A stretch of 64,000 nucleotides of DNA from positions 64,001 to 128,000 of IMG/VR virus record IMGVR_UViG_3300035681_000001; one strand, given 5' to 3'. The notes beneath the pieces were generated by a model, which was given only the letters and a program-made list of their open reading frames with translations, searched no databases and was not told the DNA's origin. The stretch comes from a virus. Of this stretch, positions 1 through 64,000 are shown piece by piece (positions within the stretch are counted from its first letter, which is position 1; every line of letters begins with the position of its first letter). The translations under genes were made by a program, and so were the position numbers.

Positions 1-90
1 ACTGTAACTTTACCTGCAGAAGGAGCAATAAATTTCTTTAGGGTGTCGAAGTTAATATCAATAGCATATTTAGGATCATGGTGACCCATA
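1..90 (-). other. Start of a probable M23 peptidase domain (cut by the window edge)
   Basis: GHHDPKYAIDINFDTLKKFIAPSAGKVTV resembles the H...YAID...APxxGKV opening of M23 peptidases. Confidence 0.55.
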
Positions 91-12386: not shown

Positions 12387-15300
12387 CTACCAAGTGTCTA
12401 AAGAAAACCTAGAACCACCACCTGAACCACTAAAACTACCCCATCGCTGGCGGGTACCTAAAACTTCCCTTTTGAAGTTTCCTCTAGTAGAACTAAAGTC
12501 ATCTTCTACTGTAGGAGAAAATATAGCCGCAGGTTTTGGTACCGCTAATTTCCTAGAACTAGACCAATCAGCATGGGTGTTGCCTACTAGTTGCCAGCAA
12601 ATGGCGGCGACACAATCAGCCAAATCTTTGCTGTTATGGACTATAACTCCTGCTCCGACAGCAAAGTTATCCCAAAGATCCACTGACAAATCATAAACAG
12701 GAACTGGTTCTGATAATACAACCTTAGTAGTAGAAACTAGCTTTACTAGTTTTGTCAAACACATCAACTCAGCTTTACAGGTTTCTAGGTCTTTGGCTTG
12801 TATATACTCACCGCTGCTAAGCATAAATGGATGATCTGGGGTACACCTAATAACAGAACCATTATCTAAGCCTACATCTAGCAGTTCTGTTACCTCCATG
12901 GTTTTACGACCTCTAGCTCGACCAGGTACCAAAGTACCATCTGACTTAGCACTATATAACCAAACTTCTTTTCCTACCAACTCTGAAATCATTGGTGTAG
13001 TACCATCTAATAATGGTATTCGAGTTTCCCCGACTAAACATTTATCTGGCTTATGGTCAATTTTGTTAGCATTAATCAGCTGTAAGTGTATGAGTTCATC
13101 TTTTAGTAAAGATGTAAACTCTGACATCCTAGGGAAAATAATCCGATTCTCGTGTAGCAGCTTCCTCAAACAGTCATACATATCAAGTTGTATACCTCTA
13201 CTAAAGAAAATAGTTTCAGCTCGTAAGCCGTTAGCCTTAAGACGCTGAATAGTCTCTGGAGAGTGAGCGTGATCACTGGTAACTTTAGCTAGCGGCCGTT
13301 TACGGTTAATCTCATAAATAACAGACTGTACATTAGTGATACTGACTTGAATGCCGGGCTCAGGCTCCCAAGCTACTAGACCGTCTATAACCACTAAAGT
13401 TTCACCTTGTGAGTCGCGTTCTTTATGACCAAAAGCTAAACCGTAAGCATCACGTTTAACTGCTGGATCTAGGTGTAAGTAAGTAACTATACCGTCAGCT
13501 TCAGCTACTGTTGCTTGCATCCTCACTAGACCATCACCACCACTAGTGTCTTTCACTACTTTGATCTTTGAGCTGCCCCTAAAAGCTCTTACTACTTCTT
13601 CTTTGTCCAAGAACGAATACTGCCCTGAATGGCGTATACCTTCAAACTCCAAAGCAGCTTTAATAGGATCTTCTGCATACTCGATCTTAATGACTGGTTG
13701 TTGACGACCTGCTCGTTTAGGGTTAAGGTCCCAAGATCTTAACCTAAAGCCTACCATTGAGTCGGCTACTTCAGGATCTTTACACGTCCGATAAAGCTTT
13801 TGTATAGCATCTTCGTCTTCCCAAGCAGAAGAAATAGCTACCCTCAAAGCATCTAGCCCAAAAGTAACACCTGAAACACCAATGTTAGACCAAAGCTCTA
13901 AAGCGTTAGACTCACCGTTTTCAGATTTAAAGCGAGCTACTTCATCCATTACCAGCAAGATCACACTAGATCCTACCTGAGAAGAAGACTTAGAATTACC
14001 CGCGTAGATATATAGTAATTTTTCCGGATACTTGATTTCTTGTTCACCTACTATTATTCTTTTTTGGTCTATCAACCTGCGGATTACAGGTACGTAATAC
14101 AACAACGCTCGGGCTTGACCGTAAATAGTACGTTTAGTTTGTTCTGCAGCGGTAGCCATACAAAATATGGCTATAGGAGTAGAAGCTGCTATACCGTAGT
14201 GCAACTGGGGCGAAGACTGTAAGCACAACTTGTAGAACTCATAAGCAACTATCAAAGAGCCAACCATCGTGTTGTGGTTGGTGAAGCCCTGTGCAACGTA
14301 TTGCTCACACCCAGGTACTGAGAGGTCTACACAAAAAGCTTCAGAGTCTTCAACAGACTCCACGAGATCATAAAAGTAGTCGCAATCTCGTAAGTACTTA
14401 AAGTGCTCGACGGCTTCTAGATCACTACAATGTTCCTCAGCAAACTCAATCAAAGCCGGCAAACGGTAAGCACTGAATTCTTCAGTGGAGTTTTCTTTAA
14501 TAGAATTACCTACGATAGCTCGAAACTCTAGCTTTAAGTTTCGGGTTTTAGGTCGGTCTGCATAACCAGAACCTAGTAGTTTACCGGCGGCGTGAGCTGA
14601 ACCTGGCTGCTTGCCTCTATTAGAGGGTAAAGAATCACGCAGCCTCTTCAGCCACACTTTTTGGTTAGGTATACGTTCGGTATCACCTCCGTCTCTACTA
14701 GCAGCAGCTAAATAGTCAACTAACGGTTGCTGTTTTCTTGGCAAGCCAAAACCTATTTCAACAGCAAATCTCTTAACGCTGCGTTGCCCTCTTAGGATCA
14801 ACACGTAATAATCAGTTCCTTTGACATCTTTAGTTCTTACACGACTGACTACACCAAAGTTTAAGAGCATCAGCTGTACTTCTTCGGCTAACTGCTTTGA
14901 AGCAGTAGACAAAGTAACTTCTCGACCACCTTTCTCGCAGCTACCGTCAGCAGCAAAAAGACCGGACAAAAAAGCAGCTTGTACGTCTTTAGGGCTACGG
15001 CGTATAGACCAGGGTACTTTTTTAGTAGTAACGTGAGACTCAATAACAAAACCTAAAGAGTCAAAGTAACTACGCAGCACTTTACAGCCAATTGACAACC
15101 TGGCCCCAAATTGAGACCTCTTATCTTTAGTCTCCTTGGGGTACTCAAGTCCCGTTTTAGTAACTACGTCTGTATACCAAGGAATGTCTTGTAAGTGCGT
15201 AGTAAGCTGTATTTGGCAATTACTGGTCCAACTGCCGTCACCTACCAATAAACCTAAAAGCCTGCCTAAATCAGCATCTAAGAACTCAGGGTACTGCCGC

Positions 15301-16097
15301 TGCTTAACTGACATCCCATTGCTGTACTTAGTAAGGCTAGGGGCAAAGTGTTTTATTGATACGTATTCTGTAGGAAAAAGGTTGGTAGCTCTGTGTATAC
15401 AAGCCCACTCTCCCGCCTGAATGTCCCTAAAGTATCTCCACTCAATATTGCCGTGCGTATTTAATACTTTGATTCTATGTTCAGGGGTGGCTTCCAAGTT
15501 GTAGCTACATTCTGTTAGTACCTTTTTGGTTTTGGTTTGACCTTTTACGTAAAAGTTTTCAGCAGTAGCTCTTTTATTAGTTCCCTCAGTAGCTACGGTG
15601 TGGCTTAAAGGCAAAGCCACGTCTTTTAGTTGCTGCATACCTTGTTCAAGGGTAAGCATGTTCAGGTTCTGAGAAACAGACATAGCTTCTTTAAGCAGCT
15701 CGTGTCCATAAATCATACCATACTTTTGAGAGCCTAGGAGGGTATACAGACTGTGGCATTTGCCCCCCCTACGACCACATTCTAAAATCAGAGCTTGTTT
15801 CTTACCAATCTCCATTTCTAAGGAGAAACAGAGATCAAAAGTAGTACGATCTAGTTCATACCAAGTTTGTATAATTGCTCGCTCTTCATCATTAAAAACG
15901 TAATGCCCGTAAAAGATCTTTAAAATAAGCATCTGGCGGACATCTAACTCGATGCCCCAGTCTGGGTGTATTTCTTGCTCAATAAAGTCAACTATATTAG
16001 TTACTGCTGTATCAGTAGCAAACTTGGTTTGGAGATCTGTGACTAGATCATCAAAAAAACCATCAAAATTAAAATCCAGCCCGGCCGATTTGCTCAT
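12387..16097 (-). CDS. terL: Terminase large subunit with two inteins
   Basis: Walker A ECGRRGGK|T split by an intein; Walker B ILLVMDE; nuclease motifs YLHLDPAVKRDAYGL and SKDLADCVA. Confidence 0.92.
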   Translation of the reverse strand: MSKSAGLDFNFDGFFDDLVTDLQTKFATDTAVTNIVDFIEQEIHPDWGIELDVRQMLILKIFYGHYVFNDEERAIIQTWYELDRTTFDLCFSLEMEIGKKQALILECGRRGGKCHSLYTLLGSQKYGMIYGHELLKEAMSVSQNLNMLTLEQGMQQLKDVALPLSHTVATEGTNKRATAENFYVKGQTKTKKVLTECSYNLEATPEHRIKVLNTHGNIEWRYFRDIQAGEWACIHRATNLFPTEYVSIKHFAPSLTKYSNGMSVKQRQYPEFLDADLGRLLGLLVGDGSWTSNCQIQLTTHLQDIPWYTDVVTKTGLEYPKETKDKRSQFGARLSIGCKVLRSYFDSLGFVIESHVTTKKVPWSIRRSPKDVQAAFLSGLFAADGSCEKGGREVTLSTASKQLAEEVQLMLLNFGVVSRVRTKDVKGTDYYVLILRGQRSVKRFAVEIGFGLPRKQQPLVDYLAAASRDGGDTERIPNQKVWLKRLRDSLPSNRGKQPGSAHAAGKLLGSGYADRPKTRNLKLEFRAIVGNSIKENSTEEFSAYRLPALIEFAEEHCSDLEAVEHFKYLRDCDYFYDLVESVEDSEAFCVDLSVPGCEQYVAQGFTNHNTMVGSLIVAYEFYKLCLQSSPQLHYGIAASTPIAIFCMATAAEQTKRTIYGQARALLYYVPVIRRLIDQKRIIVGEQEIKYPEKLLYIYAGNSKSSSQVGSSVILLVMDEVARFKSENGESNALELWSNIGVSGVTFGLDALRVAISSAWEDEDAIQKLYRTCKDPEVADSMVGFRLRSWDLNPKRAGRQQPVIKIEYAEDPIKAALEFEGIRHSGQYSFLDKEEVVRAFRGSSKIKVVKDTSGGDGLVRMQATVAEADGIVTYLHLDPAVKRDAYGLAFGHKERDSQGETLVVIDGLVAWEPEPGIQVSITNVQSVIYEINRKRPLAKVTSDHAHSPETIQRLKANGLRAETIFFSRGIQLDMYDCLRKLLHENRIIFPRMSEFTSLLKDELIHLQLINANKIDHKPDKCLVGETRIPLLDGTTPMISELVGKEVWLYSAKSDGTLVPGRARGRKTMEVTELLDVGLDNGSVIRCTPDHPFMLSSGEYIQAKDLETCKAELMCLTKLVKLVSTTKVVLSEPVPVYDLSVDLWDNFAVGAGVIVHNSKDLADCVAAICWQLVGNTHADWSSSRKLAVPKPAAIFSPTVEDDFSSTRGNFKREVLGTRQRWGSFSGSGGGSRFSLDTW
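12633..13040 (-). mobile_element. Intein 2 (136-aa mini-intein)
   Basis: K|CLVGETRIPLLDG...CTPDHPF...VYDLSVDLWDNFAVGAGVIVHN|S, with no endonuclease motifs. Confidence 0.92.
14271..15758 (-). mobile_element. Intein 1 (496 aa) with LAGLIDADG homing endonuclease
   Basis: Starts at Cys (GK|CHSLY), ends GFTNHN|T, and contains LGLLVGDGSW and FLSGLFAADGS motifs. Confidence 0.92.
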
Positions 16098-40476: not shown

Positions 40477-41058
40477 ATGCACACCCCCAGACTAATAGCA
40501 GTAAGGACAGAGCTAAATGAAGCTCTGAAAAAAGTTAAAGAAGTTACTTTTTCAGCAGCTGAAGACTGTTTGTACATAAACCAAAAAAAGTTACCTCTAA
40601 ACGCTCCAGCCTTAAAGGATCCAGCATTTGTCAAACGCTGGGCTCTAGCTCGCATCCTACTAAATGAACCTGTCCTGAATGAAGAAAAACTAGTTGCTTC
40701 AGCGTGTATAGAACAAATAATAGAAACACAAGTAGACCGGGCACTTATAAAACAAGGTTTTGTAAGGTGGACTTGTTGGGGTAAAGCTAGGTCTTTAGAC
40801 CTAAAAGAAGCGCCTGCAGAACTTTGGTTGGTAGCAGCCAAAGCACTACAAGAAGGGTACGTACTTAAAGAAGCTGTAGGTTCGCACTTTTGGGTAACAG
40901 CCCCTTCGGGCCTACAGCATGTAACTACTTTTAGGGAGTGTAACTGTGTAGAATTCTCAAGGCGGCATGAATGTGTACACCACCAACTTGTTCTTGCAGC
41001 CCAAGCTAAGAGGAGCTTATTCCTCCAACACCAATTAATTGAACAATGCTTCCTATGA
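40477..41058 (+). CDS. SWIM zinc-finger protein
   Basis: CNC-x9-CVH (ECNCVEFSRRHECVHH); GAGG RBS upstream. Confidence 0.75.
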   Translation: MHTPRLIAVRTELNEALKKVKEVTFSAAEDCLYINQKKLPLNAPALKDPAFVKRWALARILLNEPVLNEEKLVASACIEQIIETQVDRALIKQGFVRWTCWGKARSLDLKEAPAELWLVAAKALQEGYVLKEAVGSHFWVTAPSGLQHVTTFRECNCVEFSRRHECVHHQLVLAAQAKRSLFLQHQLIEQCFL

Positions 41059-41660
41059 TTAGCGCAGAAGCTCTTAGCTTACTGAAACCTAGAATTGTAG
41101 AAATTGAACCTGGCTGGGCTCCTAGACCAGCTAACCAAGGTGATGTCGGGGCGGACTTAAAGCTGTATATAGAACCCGGAGAAGAAGAATACTACTGTGA
41201 CTGTGTATTAACTCCTAATTTAGTAGTTGATGGAAAACTAGTAGAAGACTACTCTGCCGCTCAAACTTTAATAGATACTAGTCGTATCGTAGTCTTGCAA
41301 CCTGGCCAAACTAGGATCTTCAATGCGGGCTTTAAGATTGCCGTAAATGCCGTTGCTAGTCTCGCACCTCTTATTCCTGTCTACTACATAGTTAGTCGTT
41401 CTGGGTTATCCACCAAGTTCAAAGTATCTGTCACCAATCGTCCAGGTGTTATAGATCCCGTAACGTATAGAGGTTGGGTAAAAGTCTCGCTGGAAAACAC
41501 CGGTGTGTGCACCCACGTTTTTACGCACGGTGCAAGAATCGCTCAAGGTATTTTACAGTTAGTAATTGACCAGTCTTACTGGTCACCGGAAGAACTAATC
41601 GTAGAATCTTTAGAAGAAACTGTTCGTGGTACCGGCGGCTTCGGGTCCACAGGGGTGTGA
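41046..41660 (+). CDS. dut: Trimeric dUTPase
   Basis: All five motifs present: GADL, SRSGL, GVIDPVTYRG, RIAQ, RGTGGFGSTG. Confidence 0.93.
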   Translation: MLPMISAEALSLLKPRIVEIEPGWAPRPANQGDVGADLKLYIEPGEEEYYCDCVLTPNLVVDGKLVEDYSAAQTLIDTSRIVVLQPGQTRIFNAGFKIAVNAVASLAPLIPVYYIVSRSGLSTKFKVSVTNRPGVIDPVTYRGWVKVSLENTGVCTHVFTHGARIAQGILQLVIDQSYWSPEELIVESLEETVRGTGGFGSTGV

Positions 41661-44853: not shown

Positions 44854-47800
44854 ATGAACCCAGAAGAAAACCTAGATCTAAATGACGAACTAGACTCTGA
44901 GCTAGGGGAACTAGGTGGCGAGGATTCAGTAAAAGACCAAATAGCAGACGAGCTAGAAGGTAAGCACGATATTGCTGACGGTGACCACCAAAGCTCAGTC
45001 AAAGAATTCTTTCGTATTTACGACATTAAGGCTGGTGATCCTTTTAAAGCCGTAGAACTAGAAAGTACTGCATTCTTAGAAAAGGTAACAGCGCAAGAAC
45101 TACAAAATGTCAATCGGCTTAATAAACAAGAAGATCAACGAGCAGCAATTAATAAAACTCTAGAGACGTACCGAGAAGCACAGTCACAAATCACACAGCT
45201 GCAAGGTAACCGCTTAAGACAGTCACTGACTGCTTACGGTCACGCTATAACAGAACGCAGCGGAGGTTACATAGGACCTCAAACAGGCCTAACGTTCAGG
45301 GCTAGAACTGAAGACTATTTAGCCTTTAGTAGATCACTAGGTACCAGCCGGCTGGATATGGCTGTGTTCCAAGTACAAAACCAAGAACTACTAGGTGGTT
45401 TTTTGCGCGGTGGTGTGCGGAAATTGCAAATAACCACTCAACTAGATGAACCTATCGCGGCCTCTAGTGAAAGTGTTAGTAAGTGGTACGAAAACGAAAA
45501 ACAGAGATTTGGTATTACAGGGCCTAACGAAGTACTAGCCAGTGCTTTTAGGAATAGCCCACACTTAGGCCGAGCTGAAGTAACTGTGAGTGGTAGTTAT
45601 ATTAAAAAACCCAACGACACCCAACGCGGCTTGATGCACGCCAAAATAGCTGCTTTGTATGAAGGAGACGAGACAAACCAAAAACTAGTAGGTGCTTTTA
45701 TAGGCACACAAAACTTTACTAGAGCTCTAGCCAACACACGTACTGAAGAAGAAACTCTGTTTATCTCCTTAAAAGGAGATCAAAAGTATCTTGACGGTCA
45801 AGATCAACTAGAACGAGGTCGCGCACTGATCAGACAAAGAATAGCTAACGAGATAGCACTAGTTACTGAAGGAATCAGAGAAAACTTTACTGAAGCTCGT
45901 ACTAGTAGGCAACTAACCACAGACATAGACCGCAAACTGCAAAGAAGAAACGTAAGCTACGGTACGCACGTGTTGCCAGTAATAGGCGAGATGCTCAGTA
46001 CCGCTGTTACTGAAAAGAGACACGTGCTGTTGAATATGCAATATATAGAAAAGTTCTTAGCTGCTGAAGGAGAACACGAAGGTAAAATCTACGGCAGCTT
46101 AGCCACACTAGCCGCCGAAGGTCGCTTAACAGTAGCTGTCTCTGAGACCAGCTTAGCTAAAGGTACAGGCTATTACTCTTTAATGGACCAAGTAAGAAAA
46201 GATACGGTCAACAACACCTTAATACAAACACTGCTACAAAAAGATGCTTTTGCAGTGCTACCAACCAGGTTCTTACACACTAAAAGCATTGCTATTTTTG
46301 GAGACTCAACGCTAAGTAACTTAGTTGAGTACGGTATAGGCTCACAAAACCTTAGTGAAGAAAAATACACCTCCGCAGAATTAAACTTTGAAACTTGGGT
46401 CCGGTTAACTCAAGGTGGTCTGCCAGGAGACCTGGAAGACGAACTAACTGCGTTGGGAGTACACAGGTCTAGTGGTCAACTAGCAGCTACAGCTAGAACT
46501 CGCTCGCAACTATATGTAGACCGCATGGGGTCTGCTGCACAAGTAGCAAACTTAATAGACAAATTGGGTGAAATGGGTGGAGCCGATACACATTTGTTTG
46601 ACACACTAGAACCTGGAAAAAGGTTTAAATACAACGTTAGGTATAAGACTCCCAGCTTGATTCCAAACCTAGCCCAAAACTCAGCCCGATCAATAGCTGA
46701 AAAGGCTATGTCTGGTGTAGATATCTACCTACCTAGTGCTAACAACTACCGCTTGAGCGCGACCATAAGTGAAGAATATACTCACGACCTTAAAAGAAAA
46801 ATGCCGGTGGTTTACCTAAACACCGGCAACCGTATCATCACAGGTGCTATCTATCGTATAGCACGAGACCTAGAAGGTCAGGTTATGCTGCCTAACGGCA
46901 AAATAGCTAAAGCTGGAGACACCATAAAACTTGGTGCTCTAGAGGTATTCCAAAGTTTTATTGAAACCGTAATCAAAGCCACTGAGTACGAACGTAACTA
47001 CCGAGCGCCGGTACTGGTACTTAGGTCCATGGGTGTTGAAAAGCTAAGTCGATTTATTGACTCAGTACCTGGAGACCCGCAGGGTAAAAGAGACTTACTG
47101 TACCAACTACTAAGTCCAGAAAATAAAGGACAGCAAGCGCAAGGTTCACTAGAAGCTATACGACTATTACAATCCGTAATACGAGCTGACCCTACCGGCC
47201 GACTGCAGCGGATGGAAGCCGGGTTTGTGTCTACTGGTATTAGAAACGTAGTATCAAATATCTCAGCTAGTTTCTTACAACCACACGAAGAACTTTACTC
47301 AGGTGGGCACCTGACAGCAATCATGCCTATATTTGGCATGGACAATACCATATTCAGTAAGCACTTTAGTGGTAACTCCGGCACCGCTTTACTAAACCCT
47401 TACAAGCTGTCTCACTACGACTTAATAAACACCGGCGGGTTGGATTTATTCCGTGGAGTACAAGATTCTACTCAAATACGTACTACTAACTGGCAAGACC
47501 TAGAAGGAGGGTTGTACCACTCAGAAGGCGGCCCTACCAAAGTAACTGACATAGCCCAGTTCATCAGATCTACTAAAAATATGGCTGTTATTAATGAACA
47601 GTCGTTAAGAGAGTCTCAAGCGTTAGGGTTGACCAGCAACATACAGCTCACACCTGGTACTAATTTATACGTGATGCCTTACGGCAAGGCAGAACAAATT
47701 TCCGCTCGCTTGAAAAACAAAAAATCAGAACGGGTACTGCTAGAACCTAGTGACGAGCTGCTGAAATTCATACAACAAGGAGGCCGGAATGCTAATAACT

Positions 47801-50800
47801 TAATCCAAAACAACAACTTAATCAGAAATGCAGTTTCAGTAGACTTACCACCTGAGCAATTTGCTATCTATCGTCAGATCCTGGCAGAACAAAGAGGTGA
47901 TACTCAAAAAACTCTAGAAATACTACGTGAAAGGCAATCCAACCCTTTAACTGCTATGCAAGGGTTGTTAGGTGCTAGTCAGTATCAAAAAGTACTGATC
48001 TCAGCCGGTTTTAGTATGCAGTCTGATTTCTCGTACTTTAATGAAAAGTATCTAGACAGACCCTTAGTAGACCAAACCATAAAGTCTTACTCTTTTAGCA
48101 GCGATAACGTAGGCTCAGCTTTAACGCTAGCCAGACAAGCTAAAGAAAAACTCCGTAAGGGTACTATATTCCTAGCCGAGGACATAGACCTAGAAGATTA
48201 CTCTAGGCTAGTAGGAGGAGAAAGCTATTCCGACGCTTTTGTAAAAGCGTACCTAGTTAAAAGCGAAAGTACTTATTCGTGGGGTGAAAACGTAGATGCA
48301 GAAACCAGAAAACAACTGAACAAAATGGTGTTTGTGGATCTTACTGATCCTGCAAAACCCATACTAAAACTTAAAAAGGGTGTTTACTACAACGACAGCC
48401 AAGAAATACTGGGTCTACAAAAGATCGGTAAAATGAACTCTACTTCTCTAACCTTTACCATTGACGGCCTAGAGGTACAAAGCAGAGAAAACCGCAAGCT
48501 CAGAACCTTCACTCTACCGCTGGATAACTCAGCTATTTCTCGTCGAGCTCACCGATCTATAGCTGTGTTAAAAGAAGATGCTATGGTCAGCCAACAAGGA
48601 CCCAACGTACGATTAGAAGCTACTTACAGTACGTTGCTGTTTGGTCAAACCGGGATGCGTACGATAGGAGCCAAAGGTCCTATCTATTCCGTGATGGAAA
48701 GTTTCTTTGAAGGACTAGCTAAAAACAGAGGTTGGGATAACAGCGCTGTAGCAGTAATAAACCCTAGTCAGATCAAAGACTATAACTTCGGAGACGGGTT
48801 CTCTAAGCTGTCTGATAAAAACCACTTTTTAAGAACTGGTGCAGCTGACGCTGACCAACTAGAGTACTTTAGGCAAGGTCTGCAATACCTAATAGACACT
48901 GGTAGGAACACTGAAAAAAACCTACTAGCACGTGGCGGCCCACTAAAGTGGGGTTGGGACATATATGAACTTTTAGGAGACTTAGAGCTTAACGAAATAC
49001 AACAAATCACCACTGAACAAGCTGCAGAAAAACTCAAAAGAGTACAGCAGTTTAGTGCAAAAATCTATGGTAACAAAAACTACTTCCAAGGCGGAGCCAT
49101 AGTATCTAACACATTAACTCGCGGTCTGAGCATACTAGCCACAGTTAGCTCTCAAGCTGAAGACATCGCCACGCAAAAAGAACTGTATTTAAGTAGAAAA
49201 AAACCGGGTGCACTAGAAACAGAAATAAACTACGACAGTGTGGCACTACAAGAATACCTCTATGACTCGCAGAACCCTCGTAACCGCACTAGGGAATCCC
49301 AAGCTTTGATCTTTGGTATAAATCTAAGGAACTTAAGAGAAAACGAATTAGCGGCAGCTTTCCAATTAATGGAAGCTACGTATGGTAACAACATAATGCT
49401 ACGAGCAAACATAGACTTGAGTTTCAGCCGGATTGCCGTTTCGATGGGCATGAAAACTGAAACCAAACTAGAAGCTGCCTACGCAATGGCCATGACTCAA
49501 AACCAGCTAAAAGCGTACACTTACCAAAAAGGCGGCGCTGAAGGCCTGCAAGGTGCGCTGGTAATGCTGGCTCAGTTAAACAATCGTGTAGTAAGCACTG
49601 ACGCCGTAAGCAGATACTACTCATTTGCACAAGAAACAAACTTACTAGAATTTGGTCTTAAAGAAAAAGCCAAAAAGTCTAAAAACTGGAGGGATCAGTT
49701 AAGAGCCAACGCGTTTGTGGCTGCTTTTACGAGTAAGTACTCCATATACTCCAGACAAGACCTGGTTGAAATAGAAGAAGACCGACAGCGCCGAGTCAGA
49801 GAGGAACCTATCAAAAGTTTGGTAGACGAATTTGAAAGAGGATTGTACAGGGACATAATCCCTAAAACTGAGCTGCTAACTGCACCTACTAACATTCTGT
49901 TAAACAGAATGGAAACCTATGGCGGCATCATGAGTTCTGGAACAGTAGAGCAAGCCGCTAAAGCAATGATCGAACAGTTAAAAATAGTTAGAGGTACAGA
50001 GTTTAGAGCAGGTATGCAGCAAAATTACGGAAAATTAGAATCAGGGAAACTCACTAGTAAAAAAGCTGGTGCTAAAAGGTTTACAGAAAGTGGCAGCTTT
50101 TATAAGGAGTGGTTTTACTCAAAAGAAGCAAAATCTGATCGTTTTACTTTTACTAAAAGCATAGAAATACCATCTAATATATTCTCTCCAAAAGGGCTAA
50201 GTGAAAACTTTTTGCAATATGCAGGGTCTTTTATAGAAGAACGGTTAGGTAAAGGAAACCTACTTAAAATTACGAATTATGTCCAACTGCTAGATACTAT
50301 AAAAAAAGCAGAAACTACTCCAAGCGGGTCGCTAACATTCAAAAGTTACTACGAAAAACGCTTCAGAGAAACTTTTGATACTCCAGAGACCTTAGAGTAC
50401 TACACAAACCTAATAACTAAAAGCCGGGAACGCATTTCTAGTAACGATGGCTCAGAATACCTAGAATCCATGCGCTCCCTGGCTCTTTATGCAAAAAAAG
50501 ACTCAACACTAATGCGCACCGTACAGCAATCTCAGTTGCTGCACCTACCTATGTTAGAAATGACTGGTAGCGGTGACTCGCTAAGGTACCACCTGTCAGA
50601 TCAAGTAGTAAGTGGTGCCAGGTACGGTCTGGACATCCTAGAGCAAATTAGCTTAGTGTTCCACGGCTACAGCTCAAACATTTTAATAGAACAGCGTAAT
50701 CTACAGTCTTACTTAACAGAAGCCATCCGCAGTGGGTTGCTAAAGAAAATAACTCAAGGGATCCAGCAAGGAGAGGCTTACCAAGGCTTAGACCTAAATG

Positions 50801-53800
50801 CTAAAGAAGTAGAACTCTATCAAAACCTAGTAAACACTTTAGGTAGTACGCCGCAAAGCATTCAAACACTGTTTGAAGCTAAAGACGTAATGCGTCAAAG
50901 TGAAGGCGACCGCCTCAAGATGTCAGGTACTACCTTTGTAGGTATTAACAGTGCCTTAGTAGCTGTTAAGGACTTGATATTAGGTGACCAAATCGAGCAT
51001 GTTTTTAACACTGGAGGCACCAAAGGTACTGAAGGGTTAGCTCAAACTTTAATAAAAGAACTAAACGCAACTAGCAAACGCGCTCAAGAAGCTACAAACC
51101 AAGCTCTAGCCATAAAAAGACTGTACTTAGTCGACAGCGGCTTTAGTGACCTACCTACCGAACAAAGCTTTAAAACACAAAGCAAAGCACTAAAAGAAAT
51201 AGCAAGCGAATGGAAAACAGCCGGTAAAGATAAAGAAGCCAGAAAAGTACACGAGCTAAGGTTCTACGAAACTATGCTAGGTCTGAGTGCCGGAGACCTA
51301 AGTACAGAAGAAAAACTAAAAACCCACACTGAGAAATTGTCGTCACTATACAGAGTAGCTAATGCAGTTCGTACTGGCGCACCTTACGGCATAGCACAAG
51401 ACTCAGCTTTGATTCCAGTACAAGTCAAGGGTTTAGACGCTTTAAAAACCGCTGGTACCACTACTGGTACGTTGTTGCAGCCAGGCAGGCACAACACCAC
51501 AGCTATGATCAGCTCTAGTTTGTCGTATATGTTTACGCAACTAGGAGACTACGACGGGGATACTTTCCAAGTAGCTTTTCCTGCAATAGTACAAGAACTA
51601 GCTAAAATAAAACTTACTCAAAACAAATTAGCCAGCCTAAAACCAGGTACCGAGGCCTTTAAAAACACTTCAACAGACCTAGTTGATTTACAAAAACAAC
51701 ACACTGAAGCCATAAATGCACTTACTGGACACCTGCAGAACATCGCAGAAATGCAAAAATCTGCGCTGCAGCGGTTTAGTTCACGTTACTACGGCTTCGA
51801 TAAAGAACTACTGCGATACATGACCAATGAAGAACTGCAGCACCTTAGCTTGCAGTTCCGGGATACTATGTCAGGTTCAGACAAAGGAGCTGAGTACGTC
51901 AATGAAAGCTGGCGGCTAATCACTAGGTTAGTAAAAGCTGCTGAAGCAGTAAATCCCACTAAGCTACTTGACTACGGAACTCTATTAGAGGACTTACAAC
52001 TCACTGATGGAGAACTGAAAAAAGACCTAGCTCAGGCTTTGGACCCTGAAAAAAAGTTCACAGAAATAAACGGATTAACTGTAAGAGAGTACATAAACCA
52101 GCTGCAAATCCTTAAAAACGCAGAATTTGCAGAAACTAACGTCCGCAGCATGTTAAAAAATAGTATGGGTACTGTACTAAGCGGCGTAGAACTAGAAACC
52201 CTAGGTGCTGTAGTAGGTACTACTGGTATGGGTATGCTCGGAGTTACCTATAATTCCGTCACACCTTTGATGGAATTAGTACAAGGTCAAGAAATGGCCC
52301 AACGGGCTTTGAGTAAGCCTGAAGGTGATTCTTTGTTGCAAGGCTTAGTCAACCAAACTCAAGCAGCACTCAATACGACAGTAAAACTAGAAAAAAACCA
52401 ATTAATCAAAACACTAGACCTACAAGTAGGCATAGCCCATAATTTCTCCTTGACCACGCAGCAATTCATGCGTGATGCTGCGCTGAAGCCTAAGCAAGGC
52501 GGAGGCATACTACAGCTAGCTGCTGAATATAAGTTAAGTGAAAAGCTAAAAGAAGCTGCTAACAGTCAAACAACAGAAGAACTAAAAAGAACTGCAGTAG
52601 AACGTACTCTAAAAACTTTCATTAATACTAAAGTAGGCTCTCAACTGGGCGTAGGCAGTGCTAATAATTACAGTGCGTTCGCAGCTCTAACACTAGTAAA
52701 TGAATACTTAGGTAGTAGACTCACAGCCGAAGAAATAATAAATGATGGTATGCTAAGCAGCTACCTACAGAACAAATGGAGAGAAAACCGAGACCTAACA
52801 GCAGACCGACTAGTAGCTACCGAAATAACAAAATTACATAACCTGTTCAAAATAGACTACGTAACCAACCACATCCTAAAAGTAGACTCTAGTGTAAACG
52901 GAGGTGTACAAAGGCTAGTAGAAGTAATTAAACAGACTGCTTATGGCCAAAGTGTTAAAAATGCGGGGTACGATGACGAAGCTTACGTTAAAGGTTACCT
53001 AGACCAGCGGTTTAACAGCAAAGAATACACCGAAGGTTCAGTAGACCTACTAATACAAGGCAAACAATTTAGTCAAGAACTCCAAAAAATAGCCGCAGGA
53101 GAAAGTCCTTTAATAGGTGCTTTAGGTAAAGGTGTTTCTCAGTACCTAGCTGCAGCTACGCTGCACAACCGTAAAGGCGGAGACCAAACCGCTCGTCTTA
53201 ACTTGATGAACCAGCTAAGAACTAGTTCTGACAACTTTTACGAGAACTTTACCGAAAACGTTACTTCTAAAAAAGAAGAAACCTACAAAGCTGCTCTAGC
53301 TATAAGTGCTGTAAGTGGTCTGCTACCTATAAAAATTGCATCAGCACTTCAAAACGCTACCCCCGAGCAAAGAGGTAAGTTCTTAACTTCACCTGAAGTT
53401 CAAAATTACATAAACGCTACTTTAAGAGAGTCAGGAACCATAGCCACTGGTGTAACAGCAAACGAGCAGCAAATGCGTTTGTTAAGGCAAGTACTAAATA
53501 CTGACACTAGTGACAGCGGTACTATTCAACTTCAAGCACTATCAAGAGGTGCGGCACCTATTTCAGGTGTTGCGGAGAACCCAGAAATTGAAGCACTGCA
53601 AAGAAGCATAGACGACGTATGGGCTAAAACAGAACCTATAATGGCAGCAGAAAACCAGCAACGAATTGCAGAATCAGAAGCTCGGATAAAAACTGAAACT
53701 ACTAGGTTAGTAAAAGCTCATCGTAAGGCTGAAATATTCTCAATACTAGCTGTACCCGCATTGTTAGCTACTTTCTCAGGACAAACCCTAAAACCAGAAG

Positions 53801-54489
53801 AAATAGGCTCTATAGCCACCAACGTATTCCAAGCTGGATTGATGGCTACCAGCTTTAACAATTCAGCAGTAGGTCAGTTCTTAGCTCCTGATAAAGTAGA
53901 CGCTAAGTCCATAAAAGTCCTAGCTGAAGCTGATCGAGCTATGCAATATACCCGGTTGCGGGAGTTTGTTAGGTCTAATGAAAACCCACTAACGGGAGTA
54001 GCCCAAGCTGCTGCTTTTGAGGCTTCAGGTAGAGCTGCCAGTCATGCCGCTGCGTTGTTAATACAACGTGCAGCTCCTAGGTTAGCTGAATCAAGCGCAG
54101 GTCGAGGTACCACTGAAGTCTTAGGCGGGTTATTAGGCTTAGCTGTGAGCGGTGTATTAACCAACCGACCTATAACTGGATTAAATGAAGGCATGGGTTC
54201 AGTAGTAACCTACGCCGCTGCGGCCCTACAAAACCTACAAATTTCACTACAAGAAGCTCAAAACCGGTATATGTCTTCTTATTTAGATCCAGAAGATTCT
54301 ACTGAGATGTCCTTAAGCATATCAGGAGATACTGATTCCAGCGTTTACCCTTCAGAGCTAGAACTACAAGCTAGGACAGGCTGGGATCCCAGAGTAGAGC
54401 TCTATGATCCAGTAGCTTTTGAAGGCACTATAGATATAGAACCCCAATTACTGGGACCTGATTCCATTGAATCTATAAGCCTCGGATGA
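44854..54489 (+). CDS. 3,211-aa single-chain two-barrel RNA polymerase (probably virion-packaged) with N-terminal double-HKD PLD domain
   Basis: Beta'-like VRTGAP (R2173) and LGDYDGD (D2232-D2236); beta-like GMRTIGAKG...AVINP (1267-1304); HAK...GTQN (262-287) and HTK...GSQN (475-499). Confidence 0.8.
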   Translation: MNPEENLDLNDELDSELGELGGEDSVKDQIADELEGKHDIADGDHQSSVKEFFRIYDIKAGDPFKAVELESTAFLEKVTAQELQNVNRLNKQEDQRAAINKTLETYREAQSQITQLQGNRLRQSLTAYGHAITERSGGYIGPQTGLTFRARTEDYLAFSRSLGTSRLDMAVFQVQNQELLGGFLRGGVRKLQITTQLDEPIAASSESVSKWYENEKQRFGITGPNEVLASAFRNSPHLGRAEVTVSGSYIKKPNDTQRGLMHAKIAALYEGDETNQKLVGAFIGTQNFTRALANTRTEEETLFISLKGDQKYLDGQDQLERGRALIRQRIANEIALVTEGIRENFTEARTSRQLTTDIDRKLQRRNVSYGTHVLPVIGEMLSTAVTEKRHVLLNMQYIEKFLAAEGEHEGKIYGSLATLAAEGRLTVAVSETSLAKGTGYYSLMDQVRKDTVNNTLIQTLLQKDAFAVLPTRFLHTKSIAIFGDSTLSNLVEYGIGSQNLSEEKYTSAELNFETWVRLTQGGLPGDLEDELTALGVHRSSGQLAATARTRSQLYVDRMGSAAQVANLIDKLGEMGGADTHLFDTLEPGKRFKYNVRYKTPSLIPNLAQNSARSIAEKAMSGVDIYLPSANNYRLSATISEEYTHDLKRKMPVVYLNTGNRIITGAIYRIARDLEGQVMLPNGKIAKAGDTIKLGALEVFQSFIETVIKATEYERNYRAPVLVLRSMGVEKLSRFIDSVPGDPQGKRDLLYQLLSPENKGQQAQGSLEAIRLLQSVIRADPTGRLQRMEAGFVSTGIRNVVSNISASFLQPHEELYSGGHLTAIMPIFGMDNTIFSKHFSGNSGTALLNPYKLSHYDLINTGGLDLFRGVQDSTQIRTTNWQDLEGGLYHSEGGPTKVTDIAQFIRSTKNMAVINEQSLRESQALGLTSNIQLTPGTNLYVMPYGKAEQISARLKNKKSERVLLEPSDELLKFIQQGGRNANNLIQNNNLIRNAVSVDLPPEQFAIYRQILAEQRGDTQKTLEILRERQSNPLTAMQGLLGASQYQKVLISAGFSMQSDFSYFNEKYLDRPLVDQTIKSYSFSSDNVGSALTLARQAKEKLRKGTIFLAEDIDLEDYSRLVGGESYSDAFVKAYLVKSESTYSWGENVDAETRKQLNKMVFVDLTDPAKPILKLKKGVYYNDSQEILGLQKIGKMNSTSLTFTIDGLEVQSRENRKLRTFTLPLDNSAISRRAHRSIAVLKEDAMVSQQGPNVRLEATYSTLLFGQTGMRTIGAKGPIYSVMESFFEGLAKNRGWDNSAVAVINPSQIKDYNFGDGFSKLSDKNHFLRTGAADADQLEYFRQGLQYLIDTGRNTEKNLLARGGPLKWGWDIYELLGDLELNEIQQITTEQAAEKLKRVQQFSAKIYGNKNYFQGGAIVSNTLTRGLSILATVSSQAEDIATQKELYLSRKKPGALETEINYDSVALQEYLYDSQNPRNRTRESQALIFGINLRNLRENELAAAFQLMEATYGNNIMLRANIDLSFSRIAVSMGMKTETKLEAAYAMAMTQNQLKAYTYQKGGAEGLQGALVMLAQLNNRVVSTDAVSRYYSFAQETNLLEFGLKEKAKKSKNWRDQLRANAFVAAFTSKYSIYSRQDLVEIEEDRQRRVREEPIKSLVDEFERGLYRDIIPKTELLTAPTNILLNRMETYGGIMSSGTVEQAAKAMIEQLKIVRGTEFRAGMQQNYGKLESGKLTSKKAGAKRFTESGSFYKEWFYSKEAKSDRFTFTKSIEIPSNIFSPKGLSENFLQYAGSFIEERLGKGNLLKITNYVQLLDTIKKAETTPSGSLTFKSYYEKRFRETFDTPETLEYYTNLITKSRERISSNDGSEYLESMRSLALYAKKDSTLMRTVQQSQLLHLPMLEMTGSGDSLRYHLSDQVVSGARYGLDILEQISLVFHGYSSNILIEQRNLQSYLTEAIRSGLLKKITQGIQQGEAYQGLDLNAKEVELYQNLVNTLGSTPQSIQTLFEAKDVMRQSEGDRLKMSGTTFVGINSALVAVKDLILGDQIEHVFNTGGTKGTEGLAQTLIKELNATSKRAQEATNQALAIKRLYLVDSGFSDLPTEQSFKTQSKALKEIASEWKTAGKDKEARKVHELRFYETMLGLSAGDLSTEEKLKTHTEKLSSLYRVANAVRTGAPYGIAQDSALIPVQVKGLDALKTAGTTTGTLLQPGRHNTTAMISSSLSYMFTQLGDYDGDTFQVAFPAIVQELAKIKLTQNKLASLKPGTEAFKNTSTDLVDLQKQHTEAINALTGHLQNIAEMQKSALQRFSSRYYGFDKELLRYMTNEELQHLSLQFRDTMSGSDKGAEYVNESWRLITRLVKAAEAVNPTKLLDYGTLLEDLQLTDGELKKDLAQALDPEKKFTEINGLTVREYINQLQILKNAEFAETNVRSMLKNSMGTVLSGVELETLGAVVGTTGMGMLGVTYNSVTPLMELVQGQEMAQRALSKPEGDSLLQGLVNQTQAALNTTVKLEKNQLIKTLDLQVGIAHNFSLTTQQFMRDAALKPKQGGGILQLAAEYKLSEKLKEAANSQTTEELKRTAVERTLKTFINTKVGSQLGVGSANNYSAFAALTLVNEYLGSRLTAEEIINDGMLSSYLQNKWRENRDLTADRLVATEITKLHNLFKIDYVTNHILKVDSSVNGGVQRLVEVIKQTAYGQSVKNAGYDDEAYVKGYLDQRFNSKEYTEGSVDLLIQGKQFSQELQKIAAGESPLIGALGKGVSQYLAAATLHNRKGGDQTARLNLMNQLRTSSDNFYENFTENVTSKKEETYKAALAISAVSGLLPIKIASALQNATPEQRGKFLTSPEVQNYINATLRESGTIATGVTANEQQMRLLRQVLNTDTSDSGTIQLQALSRGAAPISGVAENPEIEALQRSIDDVWAKTEPIMAAENQQRIAESEARIKTETTRLVKAHRKAEIFSILAVPALLATFSGQTLKPEEIGSIATNVFQAGLMATSFNNSAVGQFLAPDKVDAKSIKVLAEADRAMQYTRLREFVRSNENPLTGVAQAAAFEASGRAASHAAALLIQRAAPRLAESSAGRGTTEVLGGLLGLAVSGVLTNRPITGLNEGMGSVVTYAAAALQNLQISLQEAQNRYMSSYLDPEDSTEMSLSISGDTDSSVYPSELELQARTGWDPRVELYDPVAFEGTIDIEPQLLGPDSIESISLG

Positions 54490-57017: not shown

Positions 57018-57243
57018 CTAAAGAACAACTAGGGTACTGGGGTTCTAGCAAAGCAGTCCAAGCTTTAGTACCGTCATCACTAAGAGAAAGTACAGCAGAA
57101 GACTGCACCACTACACCTGGGTAATGAAAATACAACGCTTCAGAGTCCTTAGTAACAGACAACCCACAAGGGTGTGTTATTACTACTCGACCACCCGCAC
57201 GAGTAACGCGTAGTCTGAAAAATTGCCTTAAAAGCCAGAACAT
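56965..57243 (-). CDS. Hypothetical protein
   Basis: ATG 57243 overlaps the PAAR stop (TGATG); 92 aa. Confidence 0.55.
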   Translation of the reverse strand: MFWLLRQFFRLRVTRAGGRVVITHPCGLSVTKDSEALYFHYPGVVVQSSAVLSLSDDGTKAWTALLEPQYPSCSLVAPDALVQLRSADRCST

Positions 57244-57539
57244 CAACCTACCAACGTAGTAACAGAACCTGGTCCGGTAACCAGACCAGCGCATGAATCA
57301 GCATCACCCACTCGTATTACCAAAGCACCCCCTATAAAAGTACAGGCGGTACTGGGATACAAACTCGTAGGGTCACCGCACACCCCTAGGTCCCCAGCTA
57401 CTACTGGTACCTTACCACTTACTAAAGTAGTAACCGACCGCCCGTACACTATGCTACCCGTAGGTGACCAAGTTCCTTCAGGAGGATGAGGACAACCCGG
57501 ACAAGTTAGCGAGTCCCCCACTAGAGCTAATGGTTTCAT
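57243..57539 (-). CDS. PAAR-repeat spike-tip protein
   Basis: ALVGDSLTCPGCPH...TLVSGKVPVVAGD...FIGGALVIRVGDADSCAGLV. Confidence 0.85.
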   Translation of the reverse strand: MKPLALVGDSLTCPGCPHPPEGTWSPTGSIVYGRSVTTLVSGKVPVVAGDLGVCGDPTSLYPSTACTFIGGALVIRVGDADSCAGLVTGPGSVTTLVG

Positions 57540-58329
57540 CGCGTACCCAAAAAACCCATTCTACAAAGTAGTCTCCATCAACTATAGCAGCTAAATCTCC
57601 CTTACGACCTAAAGGCGCTTCGTAGGGACCAAACTCACCTACTACCCTTAAGTCCAACAAGTCACCAGTAGGTACCGGAGGGATACCTGTTGAGTTATAG
57701 TGAGTTTCTAAAAAGCGCTCTAGTAACACCGGATATTCACCTAGCCCAGCTTGTGGTAAACGTGAAGTATTAGCGGCACCACCTAACGACGTAACAAACG
57801 AAGGTGTTCCCGGAGCGTTGATTAAAGCAGTCACCTGAGCCCTTAAAGCGCCAACACGGTCGATACTAACTACAGACCCACCAGTAGGGTCTAGCACCAC
57901 CGGCCACCGGGCGTCCCACACTAAGTCAGAAGCTGTAGGTACGGGAATACCAGCCCAAACATACCCAGTAGTAGTACGAGTGTAGTAACCTTCAAAAGGC
58001 AACGCTAAAGGATCCGGTGGCGGGTAAACACCTCCCACTATAGGAGTAGTAACGTAAGTATACGAGTCTAAATAGAGCTCTAAGTCCACCGCATTACCTA
58101 AATGCCTAAAAGCTGCGCCGGCGGAACGAGTGTAGTTAGCTGTTAAGTAAACAGCTATGTTCTCAGGCCCTAAAGTAAATAACGGTGAATAAACTAACGC
58201 CGCAGCCATAACTGACTCAGACCGCGCCGGTACGTAAGGTAGTTGAGGGTAAATAAAACCCTCACTAACAGCCGCCAACAACCTAGAGTGTAACCCCGGC
58301 GGGTCAGTATTAATAGGGTAATAAGTCAC
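57478..58329 (-). CDS. Hypothetical protein
   Basis: 283-aa ORF overlapping PAAR by 62 nt. Confidence 0.6.
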   Translation of the reverse strand: MTYYPINTDPPGLHSRLLAAVSEGFIYPQLPYVPARSESVMAAALVYSPLFTLGPENIAVYLTANYTRSAGAAFRHLGNAVDLELYLDSYTYVTTPIVGGVYPPPDPLALPFEGYYTRTTTGYVWAGIPVPTASDLVWDARWPVVLDPTGGSVVSIDRVGALRAQVTALINAPGTPSFVTSLGGAANTSRLPQAGLGEYPVLLERFLETHYNSTGIPPVPTGDLLDLRVVGEFGPYEAPLGRKGDLAAIVDGDYFVEWVFWVRDETISSSGGLANLSGLSSSS

Positions 58330-58769
58330 GCTACCGCCGAACTAAGTAAAAACCCTAAAGAACAATGAGTCTCACTAATACCACCTAGCAAATTCATACC
58401 ACCCAACGACCGAGGGTCTGTGCTGGTGGCTAAAGCCGAATTAGCTTCGTAAACAGACTTAAGAACGGCGGTGTTAGCTGTTACTAAAGCATCCAAATAA
58501 GAACCAGCAGGTAACACACCAGTCACAGGAACCAAAGTAGTTAGTTCACTCAACAACGCCAAAGTCGCGGGCGCCCGTACACCTACACCCCTAAGGTACT
58601 CAGCCAAACGGTCTACGTTAGCATAAGACTCTTTGTAAACCCGGTCATACAACAAGTGGTGCGCGTAGAAATTAGAACCGGAGGTGTTCCAGTGCGCGTT
58701 CGAAGCCAACAACGCAAAAGAATAAACATCAGCAAACGCAGTTAACAGCTCAGACACTAGCAGTAACAC
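58326..58769 (-). CDS. dps: Dps/ferritin-like protein
   Basis: AHWNTSGSNFYAHHLLYDRVY...DRLAEYLRGVG fits the Dps ferroxidase signature. Confidence 0.85.
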   Translation of the reverse strand: MLLLVSELLTAFADVYSFALLASNAHWNTSGSNFYAHHLLYDRVYKESYANVDRLAEYLRGVGVRAPATLALLSELTTLVPVTGVLPAGSYLDALVTANTAVLKSVYEANSALATSTDPRSLGGMNLLGGISETHCSLGFLLSSAVA

Positions 58770-62474: not shown

Positions 62475-62527
62475 TCCGGAAACGGGGGTTTTTTTGTCCT
62501 GGCAATTCAGCTAGGCGTTAACACCCA
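62475..62527 (+). terminator. Array element E12 (degenerate first hairpin)
   Basis: TCCG-GAAA-CGGGGG-T7-GT-CCTGGC-AATTCA-GCTAGG-CGTTAACACCCA. Confidence 0.7.
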
Positions 62528-64000
62528 TGGTTAAAATGACCCGCACCCGCCGCCAAGCAACTGCAGCTAAGGCTGCACGCATCAAAGCCTCCCAAGTTAA
62601 AAGTGCACGTCGTGCACTCCAGTTGCAATTTGACTACTACAACTTTGAATTAGTAACTGCAGGCAAAGCTGCGGTTGCATGGAACGAATCTGGAAAAGCT
62701 ACACCTATAAAATTTGTTACCGGTACCGGTACCAGCCAAGCTTCTGGTTGGTACCAAGAAGCTTGTACCAAAGCTGCTGCGGTAGCAGCGGAAGCTGTTG
62801 CTAGAACAGCACGTAAAACTGAACAAGCGGCACGTGCTCCTTGGGAGCAGCTTTGGGTGCTGCTTAAAGCTCAATATGGGCTGCAATTCAGTATTACTGC
62901 TGCTGAGTGGGAATCCCGGCAGTTAGATGCTGCTAAAGCTAAAGCTTTAGGACTTAGGTCTCCTAAACTTTCAAAAGCCCTAGTAGCTTTAGGGGTACCT
63001 ACCTCAGAAGTCTCCTTATTGTTAGGAGCTACTAAAACGGCGGTAACAGCTGCCGCAACTAACACAGACACTTGGGTGTCTAGTGATCTTAAAGACCTGT
63101 GGGATCAAGGCAATTCTAAACACTACTCAAGCTGTCAAGCTACTGACAGCCGTGCGGCTTGGGGTGGTGATACAAATTGGTGTGACATAGCTGCAGAAAC
63201 TAAGCACCTAGGTCAGCACCTGTTCTTATGGCTAATAGGCCAGAGGATGTCCATAGATGGCACCGGTTTTACGGCACGTGCTAAATTACGCGTGCTGTAT
63301 TATGACGAGGAGGCTACCGAGATAGCTGGTCTTTACATAGACCGCCCTTACGGAGCAGCGAGTACGTTAAAAGCTGGGTTAGCTCAGCTAGCTGAGTGGT
63401 GGGCTACTCGCAGCCACACTCCTATCTTTATGCCCACTACGTGGGAACGCCGAGACGGTGCCGGCAATGACTTTCAGTACCAATATGGTGGGCTACACGA
63501 GGAAAAACTATATTCACCCTCATCAACCTCAGGCTACCAGGACACCTGCACGCAGGGTGCCGGACCTTACGACTTTATGGTGCCAGTAGCACAACACGGC
63601 AGCCTTATACGGCGTGCTTTTACCGCACGTCCCAAAGAAGGTAACGTGTACCTACTGCCCCTAGCAGCAGTTAAGTACAACCCTCAAACTGATAAGTTTA
63701 CGGTACCTAAAGTGGCTACTAGGTCAGCACGGAGGCCTATTACGGAATCCTACCGCTATGTACGTAGTTTAGCTGTCAGCCTTGGGCTAACCGACTTTAA
63801 ATATGTTGGACAACAAGGAGTCGGCTATGGCACTCCTACCACTATTTACCAAGCAGGTAGTTATAAGTTTTTCGTCAACAAGAACTTAATACAACTAACT
63901 GATGACATGGGCCACACTACATACTGTGAGTGGGAAGAAGGAAGGCTGACAGTAAAAGAAGGTAATGTAGAATTAGGCTTAGTAATATCACAATCCTTAC
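62527..64000 (+). CDS. Hypothetical protein (at least 491 aa, runs off the window; absent from the track)
   Basis: ATG 62527 (or 62536); manual translation stays open to base 64000 (MVKMTRTRRQATAAKAARIK...). Confidence 0.8.
   Translation, partial: MVKMTRTRRQATAAKAARIKASQVKSARRALQLQFDYYNFELVTAGKAAVAWNESGKATPIKFVTGTGTSQASGWYQEACTKAAAVAAEAVARTARKTEQAARAPWEQLWVLLKAQYGLQFSITAAEWESRQLDAAKAKALGLRSPKLSKALVALGVPTSEVSLLLGATKTAVTAAATNTDTWVSSDLKDLWDQGNSKHYSSCQATDSRAAWGGDTNWCDIAAETKHLGQHLFLWLIGQRMSIDGTGFTARAKLRVLYYDEEATEIAGLYIDRPYGAASTLKAGLAQLAEWWATRSHTPIFMPTTWERRDGAGNDFQYQYGGLHEEKLYSPSSTSGYQDTCTQGAGPYDFMVPVAQHGSLIRRAFTARPKEGNVYLLPLAAVKYNPQTDKFTVPKVATRSARRPITESYRYVRSLAVSLGLTDFKYVGQQGVGYGTPTTIYQAGSYKFFVNKNLIQLTDDMGHTTYCEWEEGRLTVKEGNVELGLVISQSL

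Follow-up and report, generated by a model that had tools for sequence, protein, structure and literature searches.

Based on sequence profiles, structure modelling and conservation across a family of viral proteins, the giant open reading frame (ORF) P0001 of an uncultured jumbo myovirus is predicted to encode a protein headed by a genuine two-lobed, monomeric phosphodiesterase fold of the phospholipase D (PLD) type (residues ~142-560), each lobe having its full set of catalytic residues. The phage is represented by IMG/VR record IMGVR_UViG_3300035681_000001, positions 64,001 to 128,000 of which form the 64,000-nucleotide stretch analysed here (the window). P0001 runs uninterrupted from 44854 to 54489 of the window on the plus strand (3,211 codons), the PLD-type domain occupies 45277-46533 (+), and ~2,650 further residues follow behind it. 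The domain belongs to a known enzyme superfamily, as a diverged member, and is apparently active. We place the odds at about even (roughly 0.5) that the whole is best explained as a catalytically competent PLD head of a virion-delivered giant protein acting on nucleic acid.

P0001 contains only three HxK triplets in all; two of these have H262 (base 45637) and H475 (base 46276), 213 residues apart, as their His. At 22 residues past each HxK the chain reads G-T-Q-N287 in the first site and G-S-Q-N499 in the second, exactly the residues and positions named in the original prediction, which had proposed two PLD half-sites fused to the N-terminus of an RNA polymerase (RNAP). Half-site 1 (H262-A-K264...G284-T-Q-N287-F-T289...E299; 45637-45750, +) lies in lobe 1 (residues ~143-347; 45280-45894, +), and half-site 2 (H475-T-K477...G496-S-Q-N499...N511-F-E513; 46276-46392, +) in lobe 2 (residues ~365-555; 45946-46518, +). 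A protein of this length could contain such strings by chance, and indeed at least one match to the loose pattern arises in ~6% of P0001 shuffles. At least two matches, however, arise in only 14 of 5,000 composition-preserving shuffles, making a chance origin of the two half-sites unlikely. The number of motifs alone carries little weight, and conservation across the family is stronger evidence; the family invariance, the confident PLD fold and the homology between the lobes described below refute the chance reading, the probability of which we regard as negligible.

The 42 family rows share only ~25% identity with P0001. At site 1, H262, K264, Q286, N287, T289 and E299 are each invariant (42/42), and at site 2, among the rows reaching it, H475, K477 and N499 are each found in 37 of 37 and E513 in 34 of 35. 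Invariance of the catalytic set at this level of identity argues for selection on catalysis and not on fold alone. The domain might instead be a catalytically dead PLD fold, like vaccinia F13 with its degenerate site or the DUF1669 domain of FAM83, serving to bind phosphate, DNA ends or membrane or to aid assembly, but this is very improbable given that both His, Lys, Asn and Glu are invariant over ~40 clusters.

The half-sites had been described as HKD motifs, a label of which the His, Lys and GxxN elements stand and the Asp and the spacing do not. The Asp of HxK(x)4D is missing at both sites, Y269 and F482 being found instead in columns that are variable across the family, and the spacing from Lys to G[ST]xN is ~19-20 residues versus ~11 in the canonical motif, the hairpin being ~8 residues longer. 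The P0001 sites are HxK...N...E variants and not textbook HKD motifs. PLD members of the Tdp1 type are also without the Asp of HKD, and its loss counts against the label "canonical HKD", not against membership of the PLD superfamily. In PLD enzymes an acidic residue past G[ST]xN, a Glu in Nuc, backs the catalytic His, and E299 and E513 stand at the sequence position expected for this residue. A profile of lobe 1 matches a profile of lobe 2 at E 5.4e-4, and their H, K, N and E columns line up, a similarity that points to internal duplication, as expected of a single-chain PLD.

An AlphaFold2 model of the PLD domain from a 33-row alignment has a pLDDT (predicted local distance difference test) score of 83 and a pTM score (predicted template modelling) of 0.87; the model from six sequences was poor (pLDDT 50), and its Foldseek matches were already PLD proteins. 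In the 33-row model the domain adopts the alpha/beta PLD fold with two lobes related by a pseudo-dyad, each HxK opening a beta-hairpin and each [GS][ST]xN lying just past its second strand; the blocks that contain them score pLDDT 88-95. Against PDB, Foldseek returned 144 matches at E ≤ 1e-3, PLD-superfamily throughout among the matches listed, and a shape search of the ESM Atlas returned only PLDc_2 and polyphosphate kinase (PPK) clusters. Polyphosphate kinase, which occupies the top Foldseek rows, was rejected as an identity for the domain: only two PLD-like PPK1 C-domains align, the PPK N and head domains are absent and a hydrolase-type H/K/N/E set is present. Superposition of the whole domain on bilobed PLDs, together with the pTM of 0.87, speaks for a common active site in which both half-sites would meet. 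The model, the Foldseek matches and the 42-row conservation bear out the earlier suggestion of a monomeric two-domain PLD layout with His, Lys and GxxN in both halves.

Searches with the sequence of P0001 gave no families in Pfam, for the whole protein or for the PLD domain (no PLDc or PLDc_2 above the gathering score), and none in PHROGs for the whole protein, and for the N-terminal region neither phmmer nor a six-sequence profile gave more than chance matches among PDB sequences. Sequence bridges to the superfamily are found among its relatives, in which Pfam PLDc_2 matches the second lobe of P0006 (E 1.6e-5; a sub-threshold 25.2 bits versus a cut-off of 27) and, also below threshold, P0005 (E 0.0094). 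In addition, hhalign brings half-site 1 of P0001 into register with the canonical HKD motif in P0052, a second giant protein of the same phage, and TrmB-type PLD-like domains align to positions 246-433 of the model, covering lobe 2.

Among enzymes of solved structure, the P0001 domain resembles compact two-lobed PLDs including vaccinia F13 (9fhs), human and mouse PLD3 and PLD4 (8v08, 8s86) and PssA of Escherichia coli and Haemophilus influenzae (8yr5, 3hsi), at 11-13% identity. It differs from these in having no Pfam-level match, in missing the HKD Asp and in its longer hairpin, and in being fused to the long remainder of P0001 whereas the compact PLDs stand alone or are membrane-anchored. Single-HKD nucleases (Nuc, NucT, Zucchini/PLD6, BfiI, the SauUSI N-domain and DrmC of DISARM) form their active site by dimerisation; in contrast, P0001 carries both halves in one chain, and these have diverged to the extent that they match each other only at E 5e-4.

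A word-seeded search with residues 100-620 recovered five giant relatives of 3,024-4,226 aa, and, in a search of 1.84 billion representatives, the N-terminal profile A1 recovered 37 clusters (counted at 50% identity), of which 33 score E ≤ 1e-10. The members are nearly all 3,000-5,400 aa long with the PLD match at residues ~100-650, the few short matches looking like contig-end fragments; the fusion of the PLD head to a giant protein is fixed in the family. The pairing of PLD with DxDGD that the original prediction had drawn attention to recurs in the family, every full-length relative carrying D-x-DGD followed 300-400 residues on by RDxxxKPK. A search of IMG/VR for related loci gave only two, and among 50,697 GenBank phages tblastn matched neither the N-terminal nor the DxDGD region.

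By major head protein, the closest phages in GenBank are Ma-LMM01-type myoviruses of Microcoleus and Microcystis (~30% identity), and the best BFVD match of the PLD model is to residues 1-1,187 of a protein from Ma-LMM01 (E 6.5e-12). The sole fitting gene in the Ma-LMM01 record is gp080 (YP_851094.1, 3,562 aa; locus L013, NC_008562.1 57700-68388, minus strand). Like P0001, gp080 is a giant gene divergent from the portal and major-head genes and encodes an N-terminal two-site PLD region (H287-P-K...GTMN and H566-V-K) followed by LGDFDGD at 2537 and RDAIKPK at 2865, in the order and spacing seen in P0001. Unlike in P0001, the canonical Asp and spacing are retained at site 1 of gp080, and 279 rather than 213 residues separate its two sites. 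By hhalign, the 42-row family profile matches the gp080 N-lobe at E 9.6e-6 and a profile of the DxDGD region matches gp080 at E 2.3e-9; the 6-sequence A1 hidden Markov model and tblastn did not detect gp080, and the relationship emerged only with the 42-row profile and the BFVD match. P0001 is a distant orthologue of gp080 on the strength of these comparisons and the shared gene order, so that the PLD plus DxDGD architecture is present in a cultured phage. The P0001 family is found in Ma-LMM01-like and related uncultured myoviruses.

GenBank annotates gp080, which has not been studied and has copies in MaMV-DC/DH01-type phages, as hypothetical. The earlier statement that no characterised PLD-RNAP fusion is known agrees with our literature searches, in which we found no such fusion and no paper describing a PLD head on a giant phage protein of this kind (text matches to "PLD" in PMC12481020 proved to be "pLDDT"). 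UniProt, however, automatically names gp080 (A0A7J4) "PLD phosphodiesterase domain-containing protein", and IMG labels one of the five giant relatives cardiolipin-synthase-like. Automatic annotation had already pointed to this architecture in a cultured relative. The family is large, and its inclusion of the cultured, bloom-controlling cyanophage Ma-LMM01 makes it directly testable.

The position of P0001 is that of a virion-module gene. In the window and the five giant relatives alike, the genes for the major head protein, a Mu-like protease, a dUTPase, a Mu-type portal and two small proteins are followed by the giant gene in the opposite direction and then by baseplate-like and PAAR genes, so that P0001 is divergent from the portal/capsid block and runs in the same direction as the baseplate-like genes. 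Its neighbours in the window include a BW3TFN-like gene (PF25691) and PAAR, and the portal, major head protein and tail sheath are also encoded there. A Kyte-Doolittle scan shows two hydrophobic helices in the C-terminal region (residues 2813-2832 and 2961-2979; 53290-53790, +). Gene position, these helices and the precedents of N4, crAss and P23-45 suggest that the giant protein would be taken up into the virion and enter the host on ejection.

A tape measure role for P0001 was also considered, as it adjoins baseplate-like genes and has the two hydrophobic helices. A better fit is P0052, a giant of 4,148 aa (window 3-11774, minus strand, running past the window start; L012:332-12775:-) that is Gly-rich and hydrophobic throughout and has homologues carrying Peptidase_M23 and PLDc_2. 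P0052 is probably the tape measure protein, to judge from its sequence, which makes this role less likely for P0001. A Pfam PLDc_2 search of the phage's 189,763-bp record (CheckV 96% complete) identified the canonical single-HKD domain of P0052 with 65.6 bits near its N-terminus (residues 205-335, HAKAGVIDSKLFSGSYN; 10770-11162, minus strand). This phage lineage puts a PLD-type head on two different giant proteins of the virion module.

In P0001, each lobe would supply a His, a Lys, an Asn and a downstream Glu to a catalytically competent, pseudo-dimeric phosphodiesterase. By analogy with solved two-lobed PLDs, one His would attack the phosphodiester, with phospho-histidine as the intermediate, while the other, as general acid, would protonate the leaving group. 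We suggest that at the start of infection the PLD head would function as a nuclease or nickase on host or incoming phage DNA or RNA. Our preference for nucleic acid as its substrate is tentative, at a little under an even chance, and stems from the F13/PLD3/PLD4 group among the top structural neighbours (PLD3 and PLD4 being 5' exonucleases by their entry titles) and from the weak best NCBIfam matches of relatives to DrmC (E 0.0018) and DpdK, nuclease-type PLDs of defence systems. The N-Phi-[ST] that follows G[ST]xN presumably likens the family to nucleases of the Nuc/Zucchini type. The isoelectric point of the PLD domain is near neutral (6.8; family median 7.2) and does not help in choosing a substrate.

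PssA and bacterial PLDs score as well as the nuclease-group neighbours, and the setting is membrane-active, with the tape-measure-like sibling P0052 carrying an envelope-degrading peptidase. Both points favour a lipid substrate, in which case the PLD head would be a phospholipase or phosphatidyl-transferase that remodels or breaches the host cytoplasmic membrane (phosphatidylethanolamine, phosphatidylglycerol, cardiolipin) at ejection and helps the giant protein and DNA across, analogous to the PLD effectors of the type VI secretion system, itself a contractile machine, and to envelope-degrading tape-measure domains. The weak sequence matches, however, go to DrmC/DpdK-type PLDs, and the D-x-R-S tail, which we take to be typical of Cls/Pss/PLD lipid enzymes, is missing from the family motifs. 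Moreover, the N-terminus of a tape measure is thought to be the last part out of the tail and to enter the cytoplasm, as does the N-terminal RNAP of P23-45 gp96 (PMC10770324). A lipid-attacking head would make P0001 a tail-delivered phage entry lipase, a phage-delivered PLD activity for which our literature searches found no precedent, and we judge this possible but on the unlikely side. Cleavage of some other phosphodiester, whether of a nucleotide second messenger in anti-defence, of a protein-DNA bond in the manner of Tdp1 or of a phosphodiester-linked envelope polymer, is a good deal less likely; no specific evidence favours it, no PADLOC search having been made, and no neighbouring gene points to such a substrate. 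Should the PLD head be active, these phages would bring a phosphodiesterase into the cell at the front of an ejected protein of 350 kDa.

The identification of the remainder of P0001 as an RNAP was not confirmed, as searches of Pfam, PHROGs and PDB and hhalign comparisons with gp66 and beta' gave nothing past the motif. The motif in question is an acidic loop, G-D-Y-D-G-D (residues 2231-2236; 51544-51561, +), that has the DxDGD form of the metal loop of two-barrel RNAPs and is a candidate metal-binding loop. In an alignment of 12 giants, G2231, D2232, D2234, G2235 and D2236 of this loop are invariant, as are R2173-x-G-x-P2177 in the upstream R-T-G-A-P (residues 2173-2177; 51370-51384, +). Also invariant are R1269 and K1274-G-P, within G-M-R-T-I-G-A-K-G-P (residues 1267-1276; 48652-48681, +), and Q2536-Q..R-D.A.K.K, which includes the conserved basic motif R-D-A-A-L-K-P-K (residues 2540-2547; 52471-52494, +) 300-400 aa past the acidic loop. 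The R/K-G-P motif at 1267-1276, with R1269, K1274, G1275 and P1276 family-invariant, is proposed to mimic the beta-subunit barrel, and the invariant motifs come in an order that would fit a beta-like barrel and, after it, a beta'-like one.

Comparisons with known polymerases added nothing to these motifs. PDB searches with the P0001 sequence and a 12-giant whole-protein profile returned no polymerase link, and hhalign against gp66 of crAss-like phage phi14:2 gave a probability of 0.2%. Against E. coli beta', hhalign aligned the DFDGD stretch only (E 0.015, probability 3%) and the Smith-Waterman score was matched by 61 of 2,000 shuffles; against E. coli beta the Smith-Waterman score was not significant. 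An ESM Atlas feature search with residues 2120-2620 gave uninformative scores of ≤0.86, with one match named "tape measure domain". Single-chain phage two-barrel RNAPs (YonO, crAss gp66, P23-45 gp96) are extremely diverged, so the absence of similarity is no bar to membership of this group. An RNAP identity for P0001, which rests on short motifs only, is reasonable but unproven.

The closest parallel is gp96 of Thermus phage P23-45, a virion two-barrel RNAP fused to a tape measure, in which a DFDGD loop was the sole sequence clue (PMC10770324). P0001 is likewise a giant tailed-phage protein in which a DxDGD-type loop would be the sole clue of this kind. In P23-45 the enzyme domain enters together with a structural protein that is ejected, and a separate gene encodes a second RNAP that is not part of the virion. 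Unlike P0001, gp96 has no PLD domain in the text of that paper, and it is the RNAP that is N-terminal, whereas in P0001 it is the PLD.

The PLD head could act as a nuclease or nickase in cis with a virion-delivered two-barrel RNAP, after ejection nicking or resecting the entering genome end or clearing host nucleic acid and so exposing single-stranded or hairpin promoter DNA for transcription. We think such coupling unlikely, and equally doubtful its corollary that a hitherto undescribed template-preparing virion transcription machine would span Ma-LMM01-type cyanophages to uncultured jumbo myoviruses described as polymerase-less. The transcriptome of Ma-LMM01 comprises early, middle and late gene classes, with host transcription unchanged, and all phage transcription was attributed to the host sigma-70 (PMC5780444). 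The presence of LGDFDGD and RDAIKPK in gp080 contrasts with the assumption of that study that the phage lacks its own polymerase (PMC5780444). Delivery of a polymerase to which a nuclease is attached, if true, would change the picture of Ma-LMM01 as relying on host sigma-70 alone (PMC5780444).

Two further features of P0001 lie outside these regions. The protein begins with an acidic leader (residues 1-60; 44854-45033, +); the net charge of the first 200 residues is -13, and the N-terminus is conserved in relatives. A basic motif, K-x-E-Q-x-x-x-R-L-K-N-K-K-S-E-R (residues 945-960; 47686-47733, +), lies behind the PLD head and ahead of the putative polymerase region and is invariant in 12 of 12 aligned giants.

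Several other genes of the window are of note. A 204-aa ORF at 41046-41660 (+) is assigned as the dUTPase by synteny with loci L001 and L002, the homologues in which match PF00692, and its location between the capsid and portal genes is an odd place for nucleotide metabolism. A PAAR-motif protein (57243-57539, minus strand; PF05488, E 4.8e-6) lies two genes from a ferritin-like protein (58326-58769, minus strand; PF00210, E 1.1e-6), a pair conserved in relative L005. In the run of tail genes, a 1,236-aa ORF (12387-16097, minus strand) has a match to a large-terminase PHROG that is confined to residues 577-954 (E 4.6e-14) and another to phrog_9666 at residues 271-454, and is possibly an unusually long terminase-like gene, fused or interrupted. 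Finally, a large ORF starting at 62527 (62527-63999, +) continues past the window end, and its 2,178-aa homologue in L005 has PIF1/AAA_30 helicase domains.

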